Positions 40,019 to 53,424 of a DNA stretch of 61,299 nt are shown in pieces. Source of the DNA: Methanobacteriota archaeon (lineage in GTDB: Archaea > Thermoplasmatota > Poseidoniia > Poseidoniales > Poseidoniaceae); the NCBI GenBank assembly GCA_018691345.1, contig JABGTJ010000012.1, positions 1 through 61,299 on the forward strand, given 5' to 3'. The notes beneath the pieces were generated by a model. The model saw only the letters and a list, made by a program, of their open reading frames with translations, was not told where the DNA came from and ran no database searches. Position 1 is the first letter of the stretch, and each line of letters begins with the position of its first letter. A program made the translations under genes and the position numbers.

Positions 40019-40420
40019 TCACTCTGCTTCGGGTGCAGGTTCAATCACGACAAGAGGAATATTTGCTTCGATAGCTTGGCCTTCTTCACAATGAACGATG
40101 GTGACCGTACCGCTGATTGGTGCTTGAATTTCATTTTGCATTTTCATCGCCTCAAGGATGAGGATCACTTGTCCTTCGGTGACTTGGTCACCTTCATTGA
40201 CTTCAACAGTAACAACCTTGCCTGGGATGTTTGCTGATACTGTACCAGATTTCTTCTTCTTTCCCCCGCTGGTTCTCTTCTTTTTTGCAACAGGTGCTGC
40301 ATCTGGGATTTCGATTTGGAACGTTTTTCCTTCAACCGTTGCCGACCAAATTTTTCCTTCACCTTCAACAACGACTTCAAATTCGACGCCGTCAACAATT
40401 ACTTTTCTCGTTTCTGACAT
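40019..40420 (-). CDS. Biotin carboxyl carrier / biotinyl-domain subunit
   Basis: C-terminal biotinyl domain with the EAMKMQNEI biotinylation motif, a Lys-rich linker (KKKRTSGGKKKKSG) and a small N-terminal domain like the 1.3S / MmdC-type carriers. Confidence 0.85.
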   Translation of the reverse strand: MSETRKVIVDGVEFEVVVEGEGKIWSATVEGKTFQIEIPDAAPVAKKKRTSGGKKKKSGTVSANIPGKVVTVEVNEGDQVTEGQVILILEAMKMQNEIQAPISGTVTIVHCEEGQAIEANIPLVVIEPAPEAE

Positions 40421-40424
40421 CGTT

Positions 40425-40625
40425 TCACTTCCATGGTGAGCGGCTCGCTCTTTGGTGCATGAGTGAGGATTGACCCATGCTCATTCGGCGATGGTCTTGA
40501 GACCAAGCCAGCCCAGGATTACGAGCAACTTGTCCGGGGTCATCGCCTGACTGAGTAAGTATGGACATGACAGCTGCAATGGCTGCCATTCGCAAAGTAT
40601 CATCGTTCGTTTTGGTCATGACCAT
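40425..40625 (-). CDS. Small subunit-like ORF between the carboxyltransferase and the biotin carrier (OadG/MmdD- or epsilon-like?)
   Basis: 66 aa, tightly packed (3-4 nt gaps) between two carboxylase genes. LRMAAIAAVMSIL resembles the AAIAAA motif of small decarboxylase/carboxylase subunits. This is a weak match. Confidence 0.35.
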   Translation of the reverse strand: MVMTKTNDDTLRMAAIAAVMSILTQSGDDPGQVARNPGLAWSQDHRRMSMGQSSLMHQRASRSPWK

Positions 40626-40628
40626 GCC

Positions 40629-42182
40629 TCACAATGGGATGTTGCCGTGCTTGCGAGCAGGTCGAAGTTCCTCTTTATCGATCAACATTTCAAGCGCTCT
40701 GCAAAGTTTGTTTCTCGTTTGATTTGGTTCGATGACATCGTCCAGATATCCAAGCGCAGCTGCGGTGTATGGGTTTGCAAATTTCTCATTGAAATCTTCG
40801 GTCAAGCGTTGGCGCTCTTGTTCTGCATTTCGAGAACTTGAGATACGCTTGCGATGAATAATTTCAACAGCACCATCCGCACCCATTACTGCGAGTTCCC
40901 CAGTTGGCCATGCGACGTTGTAATCGCCTCGAATATGTTTTGAAGACATGACATCGTACGCTCCACCGTAGGCTTTGCGAAGAATGACGGTGAGTTTTGG
41001 TACGGTTGCTTCTGCAAAGGCATAGAGGAGTTTCGCTCCGTGTCGAATAATCCCACCCCATTCTTGGTTGGTGCCAGGTAGGAATCCAGGTACGTCTTCC
41101 AACGTGATGATTGGAATATTAAACGCATCACAGAAACGCACAAAACGCGCCGCTTTGTCGCTTGCATCGATGTCGAGGCATCCTGCCAAAACTTTCGGTT
41201 GGTTCGCAACTACGCCGACCGTGTGTCCACCAAGGTGGCCAAATCCAATAACGATGTTTTGCGCCCAATCGGATTGAACTTCGAGGAAACCGCCGTCATC
41301 AAGAATTTCTGTGATGACATCAACCACATCGTATGCTTTTGTCGCTTGATCGGGCATGATGGAGTCGAGTGCATCGCATGAACGGTCGATGGGGTCGTTG
41401 GTCTTCTTTGTAGGTGGGCGTTCGAGATTGTTCTGCGGTAGGAGGTCGCACAGGTCTCGTGCCATCTGAATTGCTGCTTCATCATCTGCGACTGTAAAGT
41501 GGGATACGCCTGATTTTGTACCGTGCGTTGATGCACCGCCGAGGTCTTCGAAACTCACTTCTTCATTGGTGACCGTTTTGATCACTTCTGGTCCGGTGAT
41601 GAACATGTATGAGGATTCTTCGACCATGATGATGAAATCAGTGATGGCGGGCGAATAGACTGCGCCACCTGCACAAGGACCCATGATGACCGAAATTTGC
41701 GGAACTACGCCGGATGCTCGAACATTTCGAAAGAAAATCTCGGCATAACTTCCCAGCGATGCGACTCCTTCTTGGATTCGGGCGCCACCTGAATCGTTTA
41801 AACCAATCACTGGCCGACCCGTTTTGAGTGCCATGTCGAGAACTTTACAGATTTTGAGCCCGTGCATTTCGCCGAGTGAACCGCCATATGCGGTGAAGTC
41901 TTGAGCGAATGTGAACACTTGACGTCCGTTAATAGAACCGTGGCCCGTGACCACTCCATCGCCAGGAATGATGTCATTGTCCATGCCGAAATCTCTACAG
42001 CGGTGTTCTACCAGTGCGTCAATTTCTTGGAATGTGCCCTCATCAAGAAGAACTTCAATGCGCTCCCGTGCAGTCATTTTCCCCTTTTGGTGCTGCCTAT
42101 CAATTCGTTCTTGGCCTCCGCCAATCTCACTTCGAGATTTGCGATTGCGTAGGTCTTGAAGTCGTTCTTCAGTCGATGCCAT
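40629..42182 (-). CDS. Acyl-CoA carboxyltransferase (propionyl-CoA carboxylase beta / methylmalonyl-CoA decarboxylase alpha family)
   Basis: 517 aa with the full-length carboxyl_transferase pattern ([25 protein letters not shown]-like [31 protein letters not shown]). Confidence 0.92.
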
Positions 42183-42342
42183 AGGCTTCCCCGAGCGGTC
42201 TACGCAAAACCCGCCCTTATGCGTTGCCTATGGATGAATTGAGAATCGAGGGTATTTTCACTCCAACCAAAAGTTCGTTGTCTGGCCCTCTCATGCGTCC
42301 ATACAGGGGTGTGTTGATAGGGAGGCAGTACCTGCAACAACC

Positions 42343-42789
42343 ATGAGCGAACCATGGCGAATCGTAGTAGCCAAGCCCGGTTTAGACGGTCACGACCGAG
42401 GCGCTAAAGTTGTGGCAAGAGCGTTAAGGGACGCAGGAAACGAAGTCATCTACACCGGTCTACGACGCAGTGCCCAACAAATCGTAGACACCGTTCGTGA
42501 CGAAGATGCGCGATTTCTAGGCTTATCCTCTCTCTCCGGCGCCCATCAGCACCTTTTCCCAAAGGTGTGTGATTTACTCAAGCATGAAGGTTTGAATGAT
42601 GTGATTGTCTTCGGAGGCGGAATTATTCCAGTTGACGACAGAGACGCCTTATTCGCCTGTGGGATCCGAGCAATATTCGGTCCAGGCACGCCTACAACCG
42701 AGATTCTCCAGTTCATTGAAGAGGCAGTTCAAGTAGAGAACTCCGGTGTTGGAGAAGGAAGCGACTGGTATTGGACCTCATCGGCATGA
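42343..42789 (+). CDS. Methylmalonyl-CoA mutase, small B12-binding subunit
   Basis: VVAKPGLDGHDRGAKVVARALRDAGNEVIYTG contains the DxHxxG cobalamin-binding motif. The size (148 aa) is typical of the archaeal split MCM small subunit. Confidence 0.9.
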   Translation: MSEPWRIVVAKPGLDGHDRGAKVVARALRDAGNEVIYTGLRRSAQQIVDTVRDEDARFLGLSSLSGAHQHLFPKVCDLLKHEGLNDVIVFGGGIIPVDDRDALFACGIRAIFGPGTPTTEILQFIEEAVQVENSGVGEGSDWYWTSSA

Positions 42790-42798
42790 GGTGTTCAT

Positions 42799-43710
42799 AT
42801 GACTGCGGAATATCTCATCGATGCAAAGTCTGGAGACCGGCGTTCTTTAGCTCGGATTCTCAGCGCAATCGAAAACAGATCGCTTCGATTAGATGAAGCT
42901 CTTGACGTTCTTGGTCCTGTGCCACCTTTGCCAGACGACGACTGGCAAACATTAGCAATCACCGGTGCACCGGGCGTAGGGAAGTCTTGCTTGTTGGATG
43001 GGCTACTCACTTCTTGGGCCAAGCAAGGTTTACGGGTTGCTGTTTTGGCAGTTGACCCTTCTTCTCCTCGCACTGGTGGTGCGCTGTTGGGTGACCGTGT
43101 TCGAATGACCGTCGTTGACGATAAGGAATTGAACCAACAAATCTACTTCCGTTCTGTAGCGACGCGCAAGGCATCAGGCAGCGTGCCGGTTATCGTCGAG
43201 GATATGACGAAAGTCTTGCTTTCACTTGGATGGGAGAAAGTGGTCATTGAAACGGTAGGTGCCGGCCAATCCGAAGTTCGTTGTGCTGCTTTAGCTGACC
43301 GAATTGTCGTGGTTGAAGGACCAGCACGCGGTGATGGTATTCAGGCGGAAAAAGCGGGCTTGCTCGAACTTGCCGATGCAGTCCTTGTCAACAAATCCGA
43401 CCTTCCAGGGGCTGCATTACATGCAGATGAAATTCGAGAATCGTTTGAATTAGGTATTGGCTCCACACCTCCTGTCGCCCTCACTTCAGCCCTTCACGGT
43501 ACTGGAATCGATGAAGCAGCAACTGTTCTTCTCCAACTTCCTTCATCTGGCCGTTCGGTACGGGCGCGATGGAGAGAGAGGTTACTAGCATTTCATGAAC
43601 GGAAAATTTTGGAGTCTCCAAAACTTGACGATTTACTCCATCAATTAGCGAAGGGTTCAATTCATTTGGATGAAGCCATGAGGCTCATAGGTGGGTTTGC
43701 CGATGAGTGA
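42799..43710 (+). CDS. meaB: MeaB/ArgK G-protein chaperone for methylmalonyl-CoA mutase
   Basis: P-loop GAPGVGKS, ETVGAGQSE switch region and NKSD (VNKSDL). Confidence 0.9.
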   Translation: MTAEYLIDAKSGDRRSLARILSAIENRSLRLDEALDVLGPVPPLPDDDWQTLAITGAPGVGKSCLLDGLLTSWAKQGLRVAVLAVDPSSPRTGGALLGDRVRMTVVDDKELNQQIYFRSVATRKASGSVPVIVEDMTKVLLSLGWEKVVIETVGAGQSEVRCAALADRIVVVEGPARGDGIQAEKAGLLELADAVLVNKSDLPGAALHADEIRESFELGIGSTPPVALTSALHGTGIDEAATVLLQLPSSGRSVRARWRERLLAFHERKILESPKLDDLLHQLAKGSIHLDEAMRLIGGFADE

Positions 43711-44326
43711 ACAAGTCGAACTAACAAACCCAGTCGAACTTTCAGTCGGAGGCCTGGGTGGTCATATTTTTCGCAGAACGATTCACCTTGGGATGTCTTT
43801 TCTACCATTCATATATTTCCAATGGGGCGAGTCAGCTGCGGATTTGTTTGGCTTAACGCTGCCTCAGTTTGTCTCCTGCGTGGTTTTTCTATTGTTTGCT
43901 GCTGAAGCAACCCGTCTCAAATTTGGACTTACCATTTACGGTCAAAGGGAATATGAAGCGAGGCAAATTTCAGCGTTGGGATGGGGTGCATTTGGAATTG
44001 GTTTAGTTTTCCTTCTTGCACCAACAGAAGAATACATTTGGCCAATAATTCTCTCTTTATCTCTCGGTGACCCTTTCCTTGGTGAGATGCGCCGTAAAGG
44101 TATGACGACTCGTAACGTCATCCTTTCCTCAACATTTTTTCTTTTCCTTGTGTGGGTTGCTTGTTGGCACTTCGTCCAAACTCCACTTTGGTTGGCCTTT
44201 CTCTTCGCACCCCTATGTGTTGCATCAGAATGGCCTCGTCTAAGGTACATTGACGATAATGCAACCATGGTGTTGATTCCACTCGGTATGGTTCTCTTGT
44301 TGGAGCCCTTCCTTGGGTTGTTGTAA
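43703..44326 (+). CDS. Polyprenol/dolichol (phytol)-kinase-like CTP-dependent membrane protein
   Basis: Multi-pass membrane protein with FRRTIHLG, EATRL, LGDPFLGEMRRKG and YIDDNATMVLIP. These resemble the conserved blocks of the Sec59/VTE5 kinase family. Its ATG overlaps the meaB stop. Confidence 0.5.
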   Translation: MSEQVELTNPVELSVGGLGGHIFRRTIHLGMSFLPFIYFQWGESAADLFGLTLPQFVSCVVFLLFAAEATRLKFGLTIYGQREYEARQISALGWGAFGIGLVFLLAPTEEYIWPIILSLSLGDPFLGEMRRKGMTTRNVILSSTFFLFLVWVACWHFVQTPLWLAFLFAPLCVASEWPRLRYIDDNATMVLIPLGMVLLLEPFLGLL

Positions 44327-44553
44327 GGCTCTGTCCGTACATGATGATTCCATATGTTCAAATGATGGTTCAAACTGGGAAGGTTGAGTGATGAGTATGA
44401 GTGAAGAGACGAAGGGGTCAGAGCCTCCACAAATTACCTATTTTGTCGTGTTTTCTCTCTCCATCATTTTTCTGGCTATTTCGATGGTTCGATACCCGCT
44501 TTGGGGCCTATGATTGGGCAATGATTGAAGAAGTAAGCCTCTGAGGTTCGCTC

Positions 44554-46338
44554 ATGTGTGGCATTGGAGGAATGTTCGGTCAACCGGATACTTCAGTGGT
44601 TCACCGTATGAATTCACTTCTTTCTCATCGAGGACCAGATGGCAGCGATGTATGGAGCGACGATTCAGTCGCTTTAGGGCACACTCGCCTTGCCATTGTC
44701 GACCTGATTGGGAGTGCTCAACCTCTGTTCGGCCCAGCAGGTGAAGTTCTTGTGGTGAACGGCGAGATCTACAATCATCAATCCTTACGTTCACAACATT
44801 CTCAATACCTTTGGACCACTCAAGGCGATTCTGAATCCATTCTTTCGCTCCTTCATTCTGCTAGAAGCAAATCGAACGGCGTTCTCAGCGCTGGCCAGCA
44901 TGCAAATTGGTTGAATCGGTTGAATGGTATGTATGCCATCGCTCTTTGGGATGCAGGAGCAAAGCAACTCATACTTGCTCGAGACCCGATGGGAATCAAA
45001 CCCCTTGTCCGTACTCAAGTCGATGGTTCCCTACTTTTTGCAAGTGAAACCAAAGCATTACGTGCGCATGAATCTTACGTTCCTGCCATAGATGAACTTG
45101 CCTTAGTGGCCCGGATTGCATGGGAATATCCATTGGATGGAACCACGTTGTTCAAGGATGTAGTTCAAGTTCGACCAGGTACAGTCGAAGTCTGGTGTCT
45201 CGATAACGAGGGTCGGCCTTATCTCCAAGATTCAGCTGTGATTGAACGACAATACGTCGAACCTTCAGCATCATGGAATCCAGATACCAATGCTGAATCG
45301 CTCTTGGAAAGTTTTGTTGAGGGTGTTTCTGAACGCTTGATGGCAGATGTTCCAGTTGGAATTGTTCTTTCCGGCGGACTTGATTCATCTCTGGTTGCCG
45401 CCGTAGCCCATGAGGCAGCAGAACGGGCACAACAGCCTGTTCCAGCGTGTTGGACGGTTGCTGAAAGTGAGGACAATCCAGATTGGATTGCGGCAGAAGA
45501 GGTCGCTTCATCTTTTGATTTAGAACACCATCAGCATATTTTGGAACCTGGCTCTTTCGAGACAAAGTTGCCAGATTTGGCTTGGCATGGAGAGGACCTC
45601 GATGTGACCGTCTTGTTTTTCCAACCACTGTTCCAAAAGATGTCGGAACAAGTGAAAGTTGGTCTGTGCGGACAGGGTGCGGATGAGTTGCATGCGGGTT
45701 ATCCTCGCTACCGAGATTTGAAACAGCACAGCGATTTAATCGATGCACGTTTGGCCTCAATGTCACACCCACTCGCACGTCAAATCGAAAACAAAGCCCT
45801 TCCAATTGGGGAGAACTGGTACACTTCAGACCATACTGGGTCAAGCCACACCGGTTCACTTGATGAGTTCCTTCAATTCGAACTTGACCACGGCCAACTC
45901 TCCAATTTCCAGCTTCGCTTAGTGGATCGACATTCAATGGCTCATTCTCTTGAAGTGCGTGTGCCTTTCCTTTCGTCGTCACATCGTAAAGCCAGTCATC
46001 GATTGCCTATGGATTGGCGTCTTCCCGTAAACGGAGATGAAAAAGCGGCTCTGCGTTCTGCAGCAGGCCTCACCTCCTTGCCTCGGAACATTGTGCACCG
46101 CCCGAAACTGCCTGCTGGAAGAGCGACATCCCCGGGATTAATCGATACCTTACTGAATGATTTCAAACCACAAACGGATGCCATCATTGCTCGGTATCCT
46201 CTTTTGGCAGGGGCGTTGAACACTCAACATGAAATAGCACTTGGATTAGGACTGTTTGAAGCAATGCATATACTTGGAGACGGCCATCGTAAACCTACGG
46301 GCTCAACCTATGATTTGCTTAATGAGGTGATTGGATGA
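44554..46338 (+). CDS. asnB: Asparagine synthase (glutamine-hydrolysing) family amidotransferase
   Basis: N-terminal nucleophile MCGI, GHTRLAIVD, NGEIYN and the PP-loop SGGLDSS. Confidence 0.9.
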   Translation: MCGIGGMFGQPDTSVVHRMNSLLSHRGPDGSDVWSDDSVALGHTRLAIVDLIGSAQPLFGPAGEVLVVNGEIYNHQSLRSQHSQYLWTTQGDSESILSLLHSARSKSNGVLSAGQHANWLNRLNGMYAIALWDAGAKQLILARDPMGIKPLVRTQVDGSLLFASETKALRAHESYVPAIDELALVARIAWEYPLDGTTLFKDVVQVRPGTVEVWCLDNEGRPYLQDSAVIERQYVEPSASWNPDTNAESLLESFVEGVSERLMADVPVGIVLSGGLDSSLVAAVAHEAAERAQQPVPACWTVAESEDNPDWIAAEEVASSFDLEHHQHILEPGSFETKLPDLAWHGEDLDVTVLFFQPLFQKMSEQVKVGLCGQGADELHAGYPRYRDLKQHSDLIDARLASMSHPLARQIENKALPIGENWYTSDHTGSSHTGSLDEFLQFELDHGQLSNFQLRLVDRHSMAHSLEVRVPFLSSSHRKASHRLPMDWRLPVNGDEKAALRSAAGLTSLPRNIVHRPKLPAGRATSPGLIDTLLNDFKPQTDAIIARYPLLAGALNTQHEIALGLGLFEAMHILGDGHRKPTGSTYDLLNEVIG

Positions 46339-47555
46339 CATTTGTTCACAACTTAACTGAACTTCTTGAAAGTAAGCGTGAAGTGATTACAAATTGGATG
46401 GAAGAGAAACGTAAAGCTGTGCCTATCCCGATTTACGGTAGCGTCGACATTCGTGATGCTGGATGGAAAATTGGAGTGGTCGATGCAAACCATTTTCCGG
46501 CAGGTTTCAACAACGTCTCGGAAGAAGATAAACCCGCATTGGCACTACTTTTACACAACCACATCGCCAGAGAATACAACGACTGCAAATGGGTTCATCT
46601 CTATCCTGAGTCGCACACGAGAAATAAGGGGTATGTGGAAAACATTGCTGCTCTAAAGGAACTTTTGTTGCTTGGCGGCTTCAAATGCACCGTTGGTTCA
46701 TTGGATTTCGAAAATCTAGGGCATCTTGTTGGTCTTTCCGGACCACTCAAATTGGATCCAGTTGTTTCAGAAACTATTGACGGAGAAGACATATTGCTGA
46801 TTAACGGCTCGAAACCAGATCTGGTTTTGCTAAACAACGATCTCACGGAGGGTCTGATCGAAGGATTTGGCAACCAAGTCGTATCTCCTCCCCCTTCAAT
46901 GGGTTGGCATCGGCGGCGAAAATCTCAGCACTACGAAGTGCTCAAAGTCTATGTTGACGAAATCTCGCAACTTCTCGGAATCGACCCGTGGTACCTGATG
47001 GCGGATTGGTTTGTCTCAAATGATAAATGTCTCGAAAAAGAAGCATGTAGAAAAGATTTAGCCATTGAAGTCGATGTATTCCTTGATTCAATTCGAACCA
47101 AATATCAATCGCTCGGAATCGAACGTAAACCGGTCGCTTTCATCAAGAACGACCGAGGTACATACGGCCTCGGAATTATGGCGGTTCACAGCGGTGCTGA
47201 ACTGCTTGAACTTTCCAATCGTAAGATGAAGAAACTCATGTATTCCAAAGGTGGAGTAAATGTTGATAATTTTTTGATTCAGGAAGGGATTCCTACTTCA
47301 TTGAAGACCGATGATGGTGCGCCGGTGGAACCCGTTGTTTACTTGGTAGATGGGCAGGCAAGTTCCTGGTTCTATAGAATAAATGCGAAGCGGTCCGACA
47401 TCGAAAATTTGAATTCTCCGAGCGCTACGTTCGAATCGTTTGCTCAATCCGGTCGTCGCTACGGTGAGCATGCCCATGGTTGGCATGCTCTGGTTGCAGA
47501 ACTTTCCATGCTGGCTATGGGCCAAGAATTGCTCTCGTACGGTAGCGCTGAGTGA
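46335..47555 (+). CDS. Glutamate--cysteine ligase-like protein (GshA family of the Acidithiobacillus type), tentative
   Basis: The N-terminal block PIPIYGSVDIRDAGWKIGVVDANHFPAGFNNV matches my recollection of the conserved start of the PF08886/TIGR02049 GshA family. The length is about 400 aa. ATGA overlap with asnB. Confidence 0.5.
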   Translation: MTFVHNLTELLESKREVITNWMEEKRKAVPIPIYGSVDIRDAGWKIGVVDANHFPAGFNNVSEEDKPALALLLHNHIAREYNDCKWVHLYPESHTRNKGYVENIAALKELLLLGGFKCTVGSLDFENLGHLVGLSGPLKLDPVVSETIDGEDILLINGSKPDLVLLNNDLTEGLIEGFGNQVVSPPPSMGWHRRRKSQHYEVLKVYVDEISQLLGIDPWYLMADWFVSNDKCLEKEACRKDLAIEVDVFLDSIRTKYQSLGIERKPVAFIKNDRGTYGLGIMAVHSGAELLELSNRKMKKLMYSKGGVNVDNFLIQEGIPTSLKTDDGAPVEPVVYLVDGQASSWFYRINAKRSDIENLNSPSATFESFAQSGRRYGEHAHGWHALVAELSMLAMGQELLSYGSAE

Positions 47556-47592
47556 ACCCGCTCTTGCTAAGAGGAGAACCGCATCGGCAAAC

Positions 47593-48267
47593 ATGAACAG
47601 GGCATGGGTGTACATAGGAACCATTGCCTTAGGGCTTTGGTTTTCGGCGACGTCATGCAATGGTCTTTTGCCTGATGAATTCGCAGAATGGCCAGTGAAT
47701 ATTTGGTGCTGGGGTTTGTTTGCTTGGTACTACCGTTCAGGAAACCGTAAACAGAGAATCGAAATGCTGACCGTGGTTGCTTTTGCTACGCCGATGGAGC
47801 TTTTCTTTAGCGAAGTATGGCTTATTTACGAATACCAAAGAGATATGATGCCGCTCTTTGTTCCAGCTGGACATTACTTTTTGTTCGATCTTGGAAGAAT
47901 GGGTGCTGAAAAACTGAAAGAGAATTTGGCACTTCCAATTCTTATCCCCTTGATTCCCCTTGTCGCCTATGGTGCATGGACCGGAGACGATACTTCTGCA
48001 GTTCTCCTCCTCGCACTGGTTCTGGTGTTCATTCGATGGGGTCCACAACCTCGGTTGTATGCCGCAATGGTTTGGGCTGCTTTAGCGATGGAAATTGTTG
48101 GCACTTCGCTTGGTAATTGGACTTGGGCAAGTGACGTCCCATGGACCGGTCTCACGGCATGGAATCCTCCTCTCTTGGTCGGGTCCTTCTATTGTCTAGG
48201 TGACCTCTTGGTTAACTTAGCCGTCGTCAAGTTTGAAGGGAAGGACCGATTGGAGGTTACTGTATGA
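47593..48267 (+). CDS. Multi-pass membrane protein, function unknown
   Basis: About 6 hydrophobic helices. The start is set at the ATG at 47593, downstream of the preceding stop. Its stop overlaps the ferredoxin start (ATGA). Confidence 0.5.
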   Translation: MNRAWVYIGTIALGLWFSATSCNGLLPDEFAEWPVNIWCWGLFAWYYRSGNRKQRIEMLTVVAFATPMELFFSEVWLIYEYQRDMMPLFVPAGHYFLFDLGRMGAEKLKENLALPILIPLIPLVAYGAWTGDDTSAVLLLALVLVFIRWGPQPRLYAAMVWAALAMEIVGTSLGNWTWASDVPWTGLTAWNPPLLVGSFYCLGDLLVNLAVVKFEGKDRLEVTV

Positions 48268-48596
48268 CCTCCTCCGACGAGTTGCGCAAGCGCCGTGAAC
48301 AAGAGGCGGTTCGTATTCGAACTTCTCTTAATCGTCTTCGAGGCGAACAGCGTGCTTCGATTAAAGGTGGAGAAACCACTGTTGCCTTTGTCGAAGAGCG
48401 TCTTTGTATTGGATGCGACCAATGCACCATCGTCTGCGACGATGATGCGATTGAGATGTACAAAGTTGCAATGGCAAGTCCACTGATCAAAGTCGAATCG
48501 AATCAAAAAGCTAAAATTTTGCGAGACGATTGTACTGGGTGCCGGTTATGTGTGTTGGCATGTCCAACAGATGCGATTACAATGATAGACAGATGA
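48264..48596 (+). CDS. 2x[4Fe-4S] ferredoxin-domain protein with a basic N-terminal extension
   Basis: CIGCDQCTIVCDDDAI and CTGCRLCVLACPTDAI. Confidence 0.8.
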   Translation: MTSSDELRKRREQEAVRIRTSLNRLRGEQRASIKGGETTVAFVEERLCIGCDQCTIVCDDDAIEMYKVAMASPLIKVESNQKAKILRDDCTGCRLCVLACPTDAITMIDR

Positions 48597-48605
48597 GGTG
48601 TTTGA

Positions 48606-48896
48606 ATGTCCAAAAATGATAAACAAGATACAGCGCAACGTTTTGGTGGAGAGTTTGGTCCATACCGCAAGGAAGGGACGCCTGGAGTATCCCTGTCGAC
48701 GTTCAAGACATTGGTTTGGACCTCGAACATCGGCGGAATGTTGCTTGTCGTTATAGCGCTGGAAATGCTCTTCGTACGACAGATGTTTGGTTGGGGCCTT
48801 GCTTCACTGATTTTTGGTGTTTTGATCGCTTTGTTTCCATCAAACTATGAAATTACGGGAATGGACGATGGTCAGTCGCCGCCTTCAGATGACTGA
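48606..48896 (+). CDS. Small two-TM membrane protein
   Basis: 96 aa, 9 nt after the ferredoxin gene, with two hydrophobic helices and an acidic C-terminus. Confidence 0.4.
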   Translation: MSKNDKQDTAQRFGGEFGPYRKEGTPGVSLSTFKTLVWTSNIGGMLLVVIALEMLFVRQMFGWGLASLIFGVLIALFPSNYEITGMDDGQSPPSDD

Positions 48897-49661
48897 TTAG
48901 ACGATCATTTCCCTCTTGCACGTAGGGCATTGGATTTTTCCAGAGTACCCTGCAGGGATTTGAAGCGACGCGCTGCAATTTGAACATTGAACCTTGGTTT
49001 TATCGCTGCTCTCAACAGAATCTAAGCCCATGAGGCGCTCGATATTGGCAGGCCATCCTGGCTTAAGCTGTGACATGAAAATTGGAAGAGCCACAAGAGC
49101 CATGCAGATAAAGGAACACATAATCGAAGTAAGAATCATCTGGTCTCCCCACGCTACTGATACTGGGTTGGGATCATCGCCATGGAAAAGAACGCTCATC
49201 ATTCCGGATACAACCAAAACGGCCAATGTAAAGTAAACACCGTTGCGGTATCCTGAGTAAAGTATTCCTCCACCAATGAGGAAACCGATTCCAAGTAGGA
49301 AGGCTGGAATTGAAAGTAACCATGAGGTTTCACTGCCGCCAATGCCAAGAGAGAACACCATGGCCCAAAACAACCTGAAGAAGGCGTAGAGGATGACAAA
49401 TCCGCCAATGGTCTTGGACATCTCCTCTTTTTGGCTCACTTGGATGTATTGGGGCTGTGCATACCCACCCATCGGTTGGGTTTGATACATTGGCATCGGC
49501 ATAGGCTGTGGTGCTGGAGCAGCACGTGTCTGGAAGGGGTTTGATGCTTCGTCGTTCTCCATCAATCGGATGATGACTTCATCTTTATTTCCCGAAACTC
49601 GGAGCCCTCGCTCTCTGCAAAGCGTTTTCAGTTGAACAACGGTCATTCCGGTGTAGTCCAT
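48897..49661 (-). CDS. Membrane protein with an N-terminal SAP motif and a C-terminal zinc ribbon
   Basis: MTVVQLKTLCRERGLRVSGNKDEVIIRLMEN is a canonical SAP helix-extended loop-helix pattern. It is followed by a Pro/Gln/Met-rich linker, four TM helices and CSNC...(15)...CPTC. Confidence 0.65.
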   Translation of the reverse strand: MDYTGMTVVQLKTLCRERGLRVSGNKDEVIIRLMENDEASNPFQTRAAPAPQPMPMPMYQTQPMGGYAQPQYIQVSQKEEMSKTIGGFVILYAFFRLFWAMVFSLGIGGSETSWLLSIPAFLLGIGFLIGGGILYSGYRNGVYFTLAVLVVSGMMSVLFHGDDPNPVSVAWGDQMILTSIMCSFICMALVALPIFMSQLKPGWPANIERLMGLDSVESSDKTKVQCSNCSASLQIPAGYSGKIQCPTCKREMIV

Positions 49662-49711
49662 GCACGATGTGTGCGCTACTGCGTAAATATATGTTCTTCC
49701 GGTTTAGAGGC

Positions 49712-52540
49712 TCAGGCTTCAACTTCAGTAACTGAAATTACTTCAGTAGCCGCCTTTGCTTTCTTTGCTTCGACTTGACGAGCAAGGAAGGACACAACAT
49801 CGAGAATTTCGATGTCTTCGTATCGCTCGTCGCCTTCAAACTTGAGACATTCAAAGTGAGATACACACTTCGGGCAAGAGGTGAGCATTGTATCTGCTCC
49901 AGTTGCTCGAATTTCTTCCATGCGGGTGACACGCAGTGAACGGGCATTCTCGTTGCATGACATCATACTGGATACGCCACAGCACATTGCGTCTTCACCG
50001 TGGTGTTCCATCTCGACGATTTCAACGCCTTCAACACCAGCAATGAGCTCACGAGGTTCTTCATAGATTCCCATTTGTCGTCCAAGTCGGCATGGGTCGT
50101 GGTAGGTGACCGTTGTTTCTTCCTCGGCCTTGAGATTCATATCAAACCCGTTTTCAATGAGGAACTCAGTCGTGTGCATGACCTTGACGCCTTCAAGTTC
50201 GTAATCTCGAGCGAAGGTACGGAAACATTCAGCACATGAGGAGACCAAAGTATCGATACCAGATTGTTCAATCTTCTTTTGATTGTATGCCTTGAGTTTA
50301 TCAAAGACTTCATCGAGGCCTTGCCACTTTTGATCGTGTCCACAGCATTTGAGGAAGTCACGACCAAGGTAGGATACATCCATTTCCATCTCATCAAAGA
50401 GCGTGAATGCAGATGTCGTAGCGTCTCCAAGGTTCATTTCTCCTTCATTGACGTGAGAGAAAACCATCTCCTGGTCAAGGTAATCCACACAGCCAGGGTA
50501 GTAGCCGATGTTTGATGTCAATGGGTAATCTTGTACGGTGACAAAGTCTTCGTCTGCCGCCTCTTCTGCTTCTGCAGCGAGAACTGCTTGGAGAACAGTG
50601 TGTGCAATTTCTGCCTGTGGTCCACCGACAATGAGTGAACGGCGAATATCGACGTATGAATCGTAGTTGACCAGTTGTGGGCAAGCGTTGGTACATGCGG
50701 TACATGTCAAACACGAATACATCGGAACACCGTCGTCTTCATTGTTCCATGAGTTGTAGATGATGTTGAGCTTGTCTCCACCGTTGAACAAGCGAACTGG
50801 GCACGCATCGTCACAAAGGTCACAGCCGTAGCACTTGTTCATCTCAAACTCATATCCACGGCCCATCGAGCGCAAGACGACGAAGACAATGGCACCAAAT
50901 GTAAGACATGGAATGAACATGGCATAGGTGAGTTTAGCATCAAGTGCTTTTGGATTTGTATGGTAGGTCGGGTTTTCAATAGCTGCAAAGTTTGTCCCAC
51001 CTGCTGCCATATCCGTCGAACTGGAGAGGTTCACAGTTGTTCCTGCAAGTGCTGCCGGCGCACTCTCACCCCAAACAAGGAGCGGTTGGAACGTTGCGAT
51101 ACTGAAGGCAGTCTCTGTTTGAATACTGTTGTTTAGAGCAAGAGCACCGCTTACTGCAACTGTGTACTCGTAGGAATAGGTTCCAACCGGTAGTTCCACG
51201 GTTGCTCCAGCACAGTTGTCAAACGTCGAAACGACCTTGCCTTTGTTGTCGGTTACGGTTAACGTTGTTGCTATCATCGATACTGTGGCGATGTCGTTGA
51301 TTTTCCGCTCTGAGGAACGGTACTCACAGGCGAGATCGGTCGTAAGGGTCTCGATGGATTCATGGTGGCCATCAGGGAACAATGAGGTATCTTCAGTGAC
51401 CGTAAATGTTCCAGCATCGGTCCATCCATCTCCGCCGTTAAACGTGGTACTGCCTGCAGCAGCGTTGATGCCGTTCGAAGCGTCTTGATGGCCGTTCGCA
51501 TCGTTGAAATCAATAATGATGTAACGGGCAGGTTGGTAAATCATCCAATCCAACCAAGCGGTTGTAGGAACCGTTTCGGTTTCGCTCCATCCTCGTTCAT
51601 CCGTGAACTCGTTGGTTGCGTGAACGTGAACATCTGTTGGTTGCGTACGCATTGCTTCGAGTTCGGGGTAGTAGTCGTGGGTGAGACCCTTGATGGTTAG
51701 CAAACCACCTTGGTCCCAAAATCCGTCGTCATAGGTGTCCCATGTTGCGACGGTTCCAGCCGTCGAGACCAGTAGAGTCCCAATGAGAATCTGCTTTGCG
51801 TGACTTGGCTTGAATCCTGCACCCCAGGCTTTTACCATCATTCCACGGGCGAGGAAATAGAAACATATCCATGCTAATACTCCTGTCATCACCCAGGGAA
51901 TCGTGTTGAAGGCTTCAGCCACCCATGGTTCCCGTACACCGCACAAAAGATCGCCGTGGCTGTCAAGTTTACAGTAATCAGAGCGGTTCTTTTCGTACAG
52001 TTCCAAGAAGATGTTAATCGAGAAGACGGAGATGAACCAAATGTGTGCCAAGTAGACTGCACCTGCTGTTGCAAACCACGGGTCCTCCACTGGTCGCTTT
52101 TCACGACCGCCAAGGAAAGGTGGTAGTGCAAGGATACTTACTGGAATTCCGGTGAGAGCAGCGCCCCACCATGCAGCGTTCCATGGGAACACAGGTTGGC
52201 CAACGATTTCGCCAATGAAACCAGTAGGTACGGTAAATTGAGGTAGGTATTCTCCCCAACGTAGGTAACCGTATGAGAACAGAACATACCAATCGGGGAA
52301 AACGAATCCTGCTTGTGCATATGGGTCAGCAGCACCGTGAAGCGGCGGAGGAATGAGCCAAGCGTAAAACAGCAATACTGCTGCCATAAACGACAGGAGA
52401 ATTGTGTCACGCAACACTTCATGCGGCCAAAAACCGTGACCCGTACGAGTACGGTTTCGCTTTCCAGCTACCTCTTGCAATTGTTCTTTCTCCTCCATGT
52501 ATGAAGAAGCAACACGTCCGAAATTTTCGATTAGTCCCAT
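49712..52540 (-). CDS. Fusion protein: cytochrome b C-terminal (subunit IV-like) domain, extracytoplasmic insert, TM helix, and an HdrD/GlcF-like 2x[4Fe-4S] plus 2xCCG module
   Basis: The N-terminal roughly 250 aa carry TM helices and the Qo-site motif FPDWYVLFSYGYLR. A hydrophilic insert of about 290 aa follows, then the TM YAMFIPCLTFGAIVFVVL followed by RSMGRG. After that come CYGCDLCDDACP and CLTCTACTNACP, then the CCG motifs LKCCGHD...SSCAEC and MCCGVSS...SCPKC. It is a single uninterrupted 942 aa ORF. Confidence 0.8.
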   Translation of the reverse strand: MGLIENFGRVASSYMEEKEQLQEVAGKRNRTRTGHGFWPHEVLRDTILLSFMAAVLLFYAWLIPPPLHGAADPYAQAGFVFPDWYVLFSYGYLRWGEYLPQFTVPTGFIGEIVGQPVFPWNAAWWGAALTGIPVSILALPPFLGGREKRPVEDPWFATAGAVYLAHIWFISVFSINIFLELYEKNRSDYCKLDSHGDLLCGVREPWVAEAFNTIPWVMTGVLAWICFYFLARGMMVKAWGAGFKPSHAKQILIGTLLVSTAGTVATWDTYDDGFWDQGGLLTIKGLTHDYYPELEAMRTQPTDVHVHATNEFTDERGWSETETVPTTAWLDWMIYQPARYIIIDFNDANGHQDASNGINAAAGSTTFNGGDGWTDAGTFTVTEDTSLFPDGHHESIETLTTDLACEYRSSERKINDIATVSMIATTLTVTDNKGKVVSTFDNCAGATVELPVGTYSYEYTVAVSGALALNNSIQTETAFSIATFQPLLVWGESAPAALAGTTVNLSSSTDMAAGGTNFAAIENPTYHTNPKALDAKLTYAMFIPCLTFGAIVFVVLRSMGRGYEFEMNKCYGCDLCDDACPVRLFNGGDKLNIIYNSWNNEDDGVPMYSCLTCTACTNACPQLVNYDSYVDIRRSLIVGGPQAEIAHTVLQAVLAAEAEEAADEDFVTVQDYPLTSNIGYYPGCVDYLDQEMVFSHVNEGEMNLGDATTSAFTLFDEMEMDVSYLGRDFLKCCGHDQKWQGLDEVFDKLKAYNQKKIEQSGIDTLVSSCAECFRTFARDYELEGVKVMHTTEFLIENGFDMNLKAEEETTVTYHDPCRLGRQMGIYEEPRELIAGVEGVEIVEMEHHGEDAMCCGVSSMMSCNENARSLRVTRMEEIRATGADTMLTSCPKCVSHFECLKFEGDERYEDIEILDVVSFLARQVEAKKAKAATEVISVTEVEA

Positions 52541-52557
52541 GGTTTATCCTCCGAGTA

Positions 52558-53424
52558 TCAATGTGGTTCTGCAATGCCTTGTACCCAGACAATGAATAAG
52601 TGAATAATGATTAGAGTTGTAACGATCACTGGCAGAATGAACACGTGAATGAAGTACATTCGAGTGACGGTTCGAGCGGTCAAAGAAGAACCACTGAAAA
52701 GCAGGGTTGCAATATACTTTCCAACCAGTGGGCTCGAGTTTGCCAAGTTGATTCCAATAACGGCTGCACCGTAGGCAAGCGTATCCCAAGGTAAGAGGTA
52801 CCCGGAGTAGCCAAACACGATGGTCAAAGCCATGAGTGCAACACCGATCAACCAGTTGAGTTCACGAGGGTTTCGGTATGCGCCGGTGAAGTAGACACGG
52901 CACATGTGCAGGAACACGCTGGCGACCATGAAGTGAGTGCACCAGTGGTGAACTGCACGGATGATGTAGCCGAACGGAAGTTCAGTCATGATGAATTGCA
53001 TGCTTGCGTATGCCGGAGACGGGTCGCCTTCTCCACCAGGGACGTAGTAGATGCCGAGCACGGTTCCAGTGACGACCAAGATGATGAACGAAAGGAACGA
53101 AATTCCTCCCAAGCAGTAAAGTGGGTACCAGTACCAAATAATGCGAAGCTTGTATTTTTCGGCGTGGGAAAGGGGCATCTGTCGGTGCATGTTGTAGTAT
53201 GCACCTTTCGACATGTTCCAGTAATCTTGAAGTCTGAAACGAGTGTCGAGCCAAGAAAAGACCCAAAGGAACAGACGTTCAGCAAAACCCATCTTTCCAG
53301 TTGATTCTACCGCACGTAGAATCTCACGGCGTGGTGTGTCACTGCTTTCTTGACGAAGCGTCAACGCAACAAGCACCACGACAAAGGCGATGAAAAACCA
53401 GAGAACCCAAAACATTGTTGTCAT
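52558..53424 (-). CDS. Cytochrome b, N-terminal (b6-type) di-haem subunit
   Basis: RAVHHWCTHFMVASVFLHMCRVYFTGAYRNPRELNW...FGYSGYLLPWD. The helix B His pair has 13 residues between the two His, and the helix D pair (HVFILPVIVTTLIIIH) has 14, as in b6-type proteins. Confidence 0.9.
   Translation of the reverse strand: MTTMFWVLWFFIAFVVVLVALTLRQESSDTPRREILRAVESTGKMGFAERLFLWVFSWLDTRFRLQDYWNMSKGAYYNMHRQMPLSHAEKYKLRIIWYWYPLYCLGGISFLSFIILVVTGTVLGIYYVPGGEGDPSPAYASMQFIMTELPFGYIIRAVHHWCTHFMVASVFLHMCRVYFTGAYRNPRELNWLIGVALMALTIVFGYSGYLLPWDTLAYGAAVIGINLANSSPLVGKYIATLLFSGSSLTARTVTRMYFIHVFILPVIVTTLIIIHLFIVWVQGIAEPH

Follow-up and report, generated by a model that had tools for sequence, protein, structure and literature searches.

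What does an asparagine synthetase (AS)-like amidotransferase do when its gene overlaps that of a glutamate-cysteine ligase? This question is raised by a stretch of 61,299 nucleotides (below, the window), which is contig C47 of a metagenome-assembled genome (1.8 Mb, 78% complete) of the family Poseidoniaceae (MGIIa, Marine Group II). Five open reading frames (ORFs), all on the plus strand, code here for proteins of 594, 406, 224, 110, and 96 amino acids (aa), and an earlier note made from the sequence had read them as one unit that might serve the synthesis, export, and redox turnover of an amidated low-molecular-weight thiol. Here we report that the first two genes, asnB-like and gshA, are a two-gene cassette, which is translationally coupled by an ATGA overlap and has been inherited as a unit in the Poseidoniales and in one other lineage of the Thermoplasmatota, and that the three genes downstream are a separable module outside this cassette. 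By analogy to related systems we propose, with somewhat less than even confidence, that GshA makes γ-Glu-Cys and that the AS-like enzyme amidates γ-Glu-Cys or a related γ-glutamyl compound.

The asnB-like gene extends from 44554 to 46338 and gshA from 46335 to 47555, with the gshA start overlapping the asnB-like stop in the ATGA at 46335-46338. A second ATGA overlap (48264-48267) joins the membrane protein gene to the ferredoxin gene, and gaps of 37 nt (47556-47592) and 9 nt (48597-48605) separate gshA from the membrane protein gene and the ferredoxin gene from the small protein gene, respectively. ORF calls and sequence agreed exactly with the description of five co-oriented genes, two overlaps, and two gaps in the earlier note. 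The tight packing of asnB-like and gshA is no chance feature of the window, as an overlapping or tight junction is kept in dozens of related genomes. Logan contigs of metatranscriptome libraries, which came from several studies, matched parts of both genes at a level of at least 99%, and one contig of 235 nt spans the junction, which gives weak support for co-transcription of asnB-like and gshA; DNA carry-over is possible in such contigs, and the runs X1 and X2 appear to be a duplicate deposit of a single data set.

GshA was found in 58 of the 61 genomes of the host's family, including all 23 of high quality, and the amidotransferase gene lay directly upstream of gshA in each of 30 loci of this family. 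Across the Poseidoniales, which were scanned with one genome per species, asnB-like preceded an adjacent gshA in 58 of 58 loci. Adjacency within the order is by itself weak evidence, because a whole block of 13 kb (40019-53424; loci L107-L121 and L144-L152) is collinear across the order, with the sequence carboxyltransferase, B12-binding subunit, MeaB, 211-aa membrane protein, asnB-like, (gshA), ferredoxin/small protein, CCG/HdrD-like protein, and cytochrome b. The pair, whose conservation in relatives the earlier note had asked for, reaches well beyond the order. In a sample of 301 Thermoplasmatota genomes, 65 contained GshA, and all 65 also contained an orthologous amidotransferase (431 to 980 bits for orthologues, at most 305 bits for paralogues). 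The pair was adjacent in eight of the nine GshA genomes outside the Poseidoniales, in which no other synteny survives. In the loci L124, L126, L128, L131, and L137 from other Thermoplasmatota, asnB-like lies immediately upstream of gshA with stop and start overlapping or within ~10 nt, and the encoded proteins are 35-40% identical to those of the window. In these loci the pair has retained no other neighbour from the window, and the genes next to the pair in distant Thermoplasmatota vary (diphthamide synthase, UbiA/CtaA, metallo-β-lactamase [MBL] hydrolase). The other Thermoplasmatota families sampled yielded neither gene, and the amidotransferase clade is confined to GshA-bearing lineages, with no member found in >200 other Thermoplasmatota genomes.

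The second gene had been assigned in the earlier note to the small γ-glutamylcysteine ligase family on the basis of the block SVDIRDAGWKIGVVDANHFPAGFNNV, which is present in the protein, and this assignment was upheld by profile searches. The protein, a GshA-type ATP-grasp glutamate-cysteine ligase, matched PF08886 with 329 bits (cut-off 25; positions 5-368 of 402) and TIGR02049 with 298.8 bits (cut-off 293.9; positions 6-400 of 403), and it matched PDB entry 3K1T ('Glutamate--cysteine ligase GshA') with an E value of 1e-54. All 25 columns that are invariant across 45 representatives of the family, the window protein included, are kept, and Poseidoniales GshA retains 54 of the 61 columns conserved among 13 bacterial homologues. 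In the proteobacterial loci L123 and L133, an E. coli-type gshB lies directly downstream of gshA, which identifies PF08886 as a true γ-Glu-Cys ligase family in these bacteria. The distant Thermoplasmatota GshAs that are paired with the same amidotransferase scored 400-456 bits to PF08886 and group near the gshB-linked proteobacterial proteins. Poseidoniales GshA stands apart from the bacterial homologues, on a long branch (0.91). That the two archaeal lineages acquired GshA independently was considered, as the free tree separates them, but is not claimable, since a single clade was not rejected by the approximately unbiased (AU) test (p = 0.26).

Some loci differ in or next to gshA. In L174 (6710-7922) GshA was called as two ORFs of 178 and 233 aa, and the near-identical contig L175 codes for an intact GshA of 403 aa; the split is either a frameshift or an assembly or polishing error. 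Some MGIIa genomes carry between gshA and the membrane protein gene a gene for a protein of 331 aa with a saccharopine dehydrogenase C-terminal domain (L174:7922-8917; L175:7921-8916), which starts at or just after the gshA stop and occasionally joins the cassette as a third gene. In the non-Poseidoniales locus L137 (7299-8003), a gene for an MBL-fold hydrolase (Lactamase_B_2) follows gshA directly on the same strand. The MBL fold is also that of the glyoxalase II enzymes, which are thiol-ester hydrolases.

The first gene codes, as had been described, for a complete enzyme of the N-terminal nucleophile (Ntn) amidotransferase/PP-loop type. Both the N-terminal Ntn glutaminase domain and the PP-loop adenylating domain were matched (PF13537, PF13522, PF00733, TIGR01536; Asn_synthase and GATase_7 families), and the catalytic residues are conserved, with Cys2, R45, N69, E71, D92, the SGGLDS motif, D377, E378, and K518 in place. 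The Cys nucleophile, the Gln-binding residues (R49, N74, E76, and D98 in E. coli AsnB), and the SGGxDS PP-loop show no variation among 58 orthologues; residues equivalent to D351, E352, and K449 of the E. coli enzyme are also kept. Other positions are replaced without exception in the 58 orthologues, namely Glu348 by Gln, Ser346 by Cys, Asp384 by Gln, and Arg387 by Leu. The Gln in place of Glu348, which is Glu364 in human ASNS, is Gln374 (codon 45673..45675) within the invariant motif GLCGQGADE, and a HMMER alignment to 1CT9 agrees with this placement; the Gln is likewise invariant in the alignment A2. The positions of the Asp-Arg dyad correspond to Gln453 and Leu456 according to an ungapped alignment anchored on the ExRVPFL motif; R455, one position before Leu456, could stand in for the dyad Arg.

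Glu364 of ASNS, or Glu348 of E. coli AsnB, is conserved in known asparagine synthetases and required for β-aspartyl-AMP formation and for activity, and the human E364Q and E364A variants are inactive (PMC6748925). The Asp-Arg dyad holds the aspartate (PMC13060819, PMC6748925). With Gln at position 348 and Gln and Leu in place of the dyad, the acceptor carboxylate is probably other than free aspartate, and the missing essential Glu favours a role of the amidotransferase other than asparagine synthesis. The protein remained below the cut-offs of both the AsnB equivalog NF006949 (259 vs 499 bits) and the AsnO model TIGR03104 (228 vs 570 bits). In the tree, the pair-type amidotransferases form one clade (99 in the Shimodaira-Hasegawa-like approximate likelihood ratio test) apart from 13 paralogues. 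A complex prediction for the amidotransferase and GshA gave a score of 0.00, which speaks neither for nor against binding.

The product of the ligase was considered in the light of the thiol enzymes encoded in the genomes. GshB was not found, as a tblastn search of the host genome with E. coli GshB was empty; this genome is 78% complete, and its 96%-complete congener G012 agrees. The sole PF02955 match in the genome is a RimK-family protein (181 bits to RimK), and such a match also occurs in genomes without GshA. The gene of this RimK-family ligase (463 aa; G000 contig C8, L171:1355-3987) adjoins a phage-integrase-family gene. Searches also gave no γ-glutamyl transpeptidase (GGT) and, in five Poseidoniales genomes, no EgtD (PF10017); the sole FGE-sulfatase match in the five was a 251-aa protein, present in two of them. 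A role of γ-Glu-Cys in ergothioneine synthesis was rejected for the lineage on the basis of these five genomes, and glutathione or glutathione amide is unlikely as the product, since no GshB was found. With GshB, GGT, and EgtD not found, the expected product is γ-Glu-Cys, either as the end product or as an intermediate. Within the literature searched, no paper was found that links MGII or Poseidoniales with a PF08886 ligase or an asparagine synthase.

In the mechanism that we propose, GshA would join the γ-carboxyl group of Glu to Cys with consumption of ATP, and the resulting γ-Glu-Cys would be the end product or an intermediate, as no glutathione synthetase was found. The asnB-like enzyme would hydrolyse Gln at its Cys2 Ntn site and channel the ammonia to the PP-loop domain, which would first adenylate and then amidate a carboxylate. 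The likeliest acceptor in GshA-bearing cells would be γ-Glu-Cys, either at the Cys carboxyl group or at the α-carboxyl group of Glu, and by the logic of the asnO-ngg system the product would be an amidated γ-glutamyl thiol, for which γ-glutamyl-cysteinamide and isoglutaminyl-cysteine are candidates. AS-like enzymes that amidate peptide C-termini include AsnO, TsrC, ScdTA, and PesC (PMC8070244, PMC13060819). The broader idea that an undescribed amidated γ-glutamyl thiol of this kind serves MGII and the second Thermoplasmatota lineage as low-molecular-weight thiol, with a GshA-type ligase and a dedicated Gln-for-Glu AS-like amidotransferase producing it, is put forward only tentatively, and we hold it to be rather doubtful.

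Several observations weigh against an amidation of γ-Glu-Cys. In G324 the amidotransferase gene and gshA lie on different contigs, and in none of 16 bacterial loci was the amidotransferase found beside gshA. As a single archaeal origin of GshA was not rejected by the AU test, the wide conservation of the pair may trace to one event followed by long retention. No thiol-using enzyme was found to co-vary with GshA in five genomes; Pyr_redox_dim proteins (one per genome) and glutaredoxin-like proteins (two to four per genome) are alike in those with and without GshA and are uninformative. A further point concerns a monophyletic MGIIb clade of three genera and nine genomes, in which gshA is cleanly gone from its slot between the amidotransferase and small-protein genes and the amidotransferase is kept in the same syntenic slot. 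The gshA-less amidotransferases form one clade nested in MGIIb, which indicates a single loss of gshA. They are intact with all catalytic residues kept, and their ratio of nonsynonymous to synonymous substitution rates (dN/dS) is 0.08-0.10 for three unsaturated pairs (~0.09, strong purifying selection), no different from that in gshA-bearing MGIIb (0.06-0.08). No alternative ligase was detected in this clade; PF08886 was not found, nor was GCS2 in 25 genomes or the E. coli-type PF04262 in 5 genomes. Purifying selection where neither gshA nor another ligase was found shows that the amidotransferase has a selected function that does not need γ-Glu-Cys made by the cell, and the enzyme is therefore not strictly dependent on the product of GshA. 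Another seven MGIIb genomes have neither gene.

Because the amidotransferase persists without gshA, two other explanations stay alive. The asnB-like protein could, with its unusual active site, serve the cell as glutamine-dependent asparagine synthetase, in which case GshA would make γ-Glu-Cys independently and the shared operon would reflect co-regulation or history; we consider this possible, if on the whole unlikely. The retention under purifying selection fits this explanation, and the protein passes the cut-off of TIGR01536 (337 bits, cut-off 267). It is also the sole full AsnB homologue in the genome, and the earlier note had held that the lack of a second canonical asnB would imply a housekeeping role. 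AsnRS is present in the five Poseidoniales genomes, in which neither AsnA nor GatB was found; their sole GatB_N match is a frame of 620-720 aa, which we take to be GatE rather than GatB. With no other asnB, AsnA, or GatCAB, the amidotransferase is the only known candidate if the cells make asparagine, and these points, too, count against a dedicated role in thiol amidation. E. coli AsnB groups with the pair-type clade and not with the paralogues, although its branch is very long. On the other hand, all 58 orthologues carry at position 348 the very residue that inactivates the human enzyme, the Asp-Arg dyad is replaced, the score stays below that of the AsnB equivalog, and the orthologue clade is found only in GshA-bearing lineages. 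Moreover, some relatives, such as the single-contig genome G109, have AsnRS and no AsnB homologue at all, and according to a published report MGII lacks genes of amino-acid biosynthesis and relies on an outside supply of amino acids (PMC6461757), so that asparagine synthesis is dispensable in the group.

The amidotransferase might instead act on an unrelated carboxylate of a cell-envelope component, a glycan, or a cofactor, with the link to gshA being an inherited operon without shared chemistry. Its retention without gshA agrees with this explanation, too, and its nearest relatives outside the pair-type clade are encoded in clusters for polysaccharide synthesis, together with glycosyltransferases, Wzy, and a flippase; when closer bacterial relatives were sought, the matches were again Poseidoniales proteins or polysaccharide-cluster paralogues. 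In addition, the residue at position 348 is variable (A, D, L, I, Q) in non-asparagine paralogues. We regard an unrelated acceptor as improbable. In no lineage is the pair flanked by genes for glycans or the envelope, and the stop/start coupling has outlasted a divergence at which all other neighbours changed. Quite improbable, in our view, is that the archaeal GshA homologue no longer ligates Glu and Cys and that the pair makes a non-thiol amidated dipeptide, for example, an osmolyte like N-acetylglutaminylglutamine amide (NAGGN). The long branch of Poseidoniales GshA, the narrow passing of TIGR02049, and the alteration of seven bacterially conserved columns (e.g., L88H, R298M, G344S, and G363S) would be in line with a changed substrate, for which asnO-ngg provides a precedent. 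The conservation of the remaining columns and of all family-invariant residues speaks against it, as do the lack of a GNAT domain or any other feature of Ngg and the closeness of the distant paired GshAs to proteobacterial, gshB-linked ones.

The three genes downstream of the cassette code for a polytopic membrane protein (47593..48267; 224 aa from ATG), a dicluster ferredoxin with 2x[4Fe-4S] (48264..48596; 110 aa; Fer4_21, Fer4, and Fer4_7 matches), and a small membrane protein (48606..48896; 96 aa), all on the plus strand. A longer version of the membrane protein ORF with a TTG start at 47440 would overlap gshA. No Pfam or NCBIfam match was found for the membrane protein or the small protein. 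In MGIIa, the ferredoxin and small protein genes are usually co-oriented with gshA and preceded by the membrane protein gene, which occurs only in this group; neither MGIIb nor the distant Thermoplasmatota loci contain it, and it moves together with the ferredoxin gene and not with gshA. L072 and L076 show an inversion of all three genes as one block, and inserted genes part the membrane protein gene from gshA in L071, L083, L084, and L087. The small protein gene lies 3′ of the ferredoxin gene in every Poseidoniales locus that reaches that far. In MGIIb, both are convergent with asnB-like/gshA and share the orientation of the cytochrome b and CCG/HdrD-like genes, which lie directly upstream of them, and in another Poseidoniales lineage they lie directly 3′ of gshA with the CCG gene on the other side of the block. 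Beside the pairs of distant Thermoplasmatota, the ferredoxin and small protein genes were not detected. The unit of five genes seen in the earlier note thus did not hold, as the genes downstream change orientation, come after the cytochrome b/HdrD-like operon in MGIIb, and do not occur beside the distant pairs; nor was any evidence obtained for the suggested function of these genes in thiol export or redox turnover. The ferredoxin is a candidate cytoplasmic electron partner of the HdrD-like module. In a comparison by features, the nearest ESM Atlas clusters of the membrane protein (score 0.95) included a Thermoplasmatota cluster with the automatic name 'putative lycopene cyclase domain-containing protein' and clusters of the DUF817/DUF2878 'carotenoid biosynthesis protein family', which as a lead would point to carotenoid or retinal chemistry rather than to thiol export.

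Upstream of the cassette, the gap of 227 nt between the gene of the 211-aa membrane protein and asnB-like contains an ORF of 41 aa on the plus strand (44388-44513) with a GTG start and one predicted transmembrane helix. It is conserved at the protein level in the same position in ~40 MGIIa loci (33-95% identity), far more so than an overlapping frame of 47 aa. The ORF is covered by contigs from metatranscriptome libraries; contigs of two studies both start at 44403, and one of these has a depth of 23.8 compared to ~3-4 elsewhere. It is likely an unannotated micro-protein gene.

Marine Group II consists of heterotrophs that have not been cultured and abound worldwide in the sunlit, oxidising surface waters of the ocean, where they are among the most abundant archaea. 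Archaeal low-molecular-weight thiols are poorly known outside the haloarchaea, and none has been described for this group. If the cells do make an amidated γ-glutamyl thiol, it would be a new redox cofactor formed by a new reaction for the asparagine synthetase family, and the cassette would possibly provide the first sequence lead to the formation of thiol amides such as glutathione amide. Should the enzyme instead be an asparagine synthetase with Gln in place of Glu348, the view of what is essential in that active site would have to be revised.

The components of the cassette can be compared with several known systems. E. coli AsnB (1CT9) and human ASNS (6GQ3) share with the amidotransferase the two-domain architecture, the Cys nucleophile, the Gln-binding residues, the SGGLDS motif, and the equivalents of D351, E352, and K449, but the identity to E. 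coli AsnB is ~32% over the first 390 residues, and Glu348, Asp384, Arg387, and Ser346 are replaced. The gshA gene of the Acidithiobacillus ferrooxidans type (3K1T), which occurs with gshB, codes for a ligase of the same PF08886/TIGR02049 family. In Proteobacteria, the neighbour of gshA is gshB (L123, L133) and the product is glutathione, whereas in the Poseidoniales no GshB was found and the neighbour is the AS-like amidotransferase gene. The haloarchaea Halobacterium and Haloferax likewise possess a glutamate-cysteine ligase and no glutathione synthetase, from which γ-Glu-Cys is expected (PMC7278568). Their ligase differs in family, as a Haloferax genome gave a GCS2 match and no PF08886 match and the Poseidoniales gave the reverse. 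We know of no amidotransferase partner in the haloarchaeal γ-Glu-Cys system. Glutathione amide of purple sulfur bacteria (Chromatium/Marichromatium) is also a C-terminally amidated γ-glutamyl thiol, but as a tripeptide it needs GshB, which was not found here. To our knowledge, the enzyme amidating it has not been identified.

In the asnO-ngg system of Sinorhizobium meliloti and Pseudomonas aeruginosa (PA3459-PA3460), the gene of an AS-like amidotransferase likewise lies directly upstream of that of an ATP-dependent dipeptide ligase, and the amidotransferase amidates the carboxylate at the C-terminus of this dipeptide to yield NAGGN (PMC8070244). The proteins themselves differ, since the amidotransferase of the window fails the AsnO model and its partner is a PF08886 GshA and not a GNAT-plus-ligase Ngg. 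What the two systems have in common is the logic of the operon, which in the case of the Poseidoniales would lead to a thiol instead of NAGGN.

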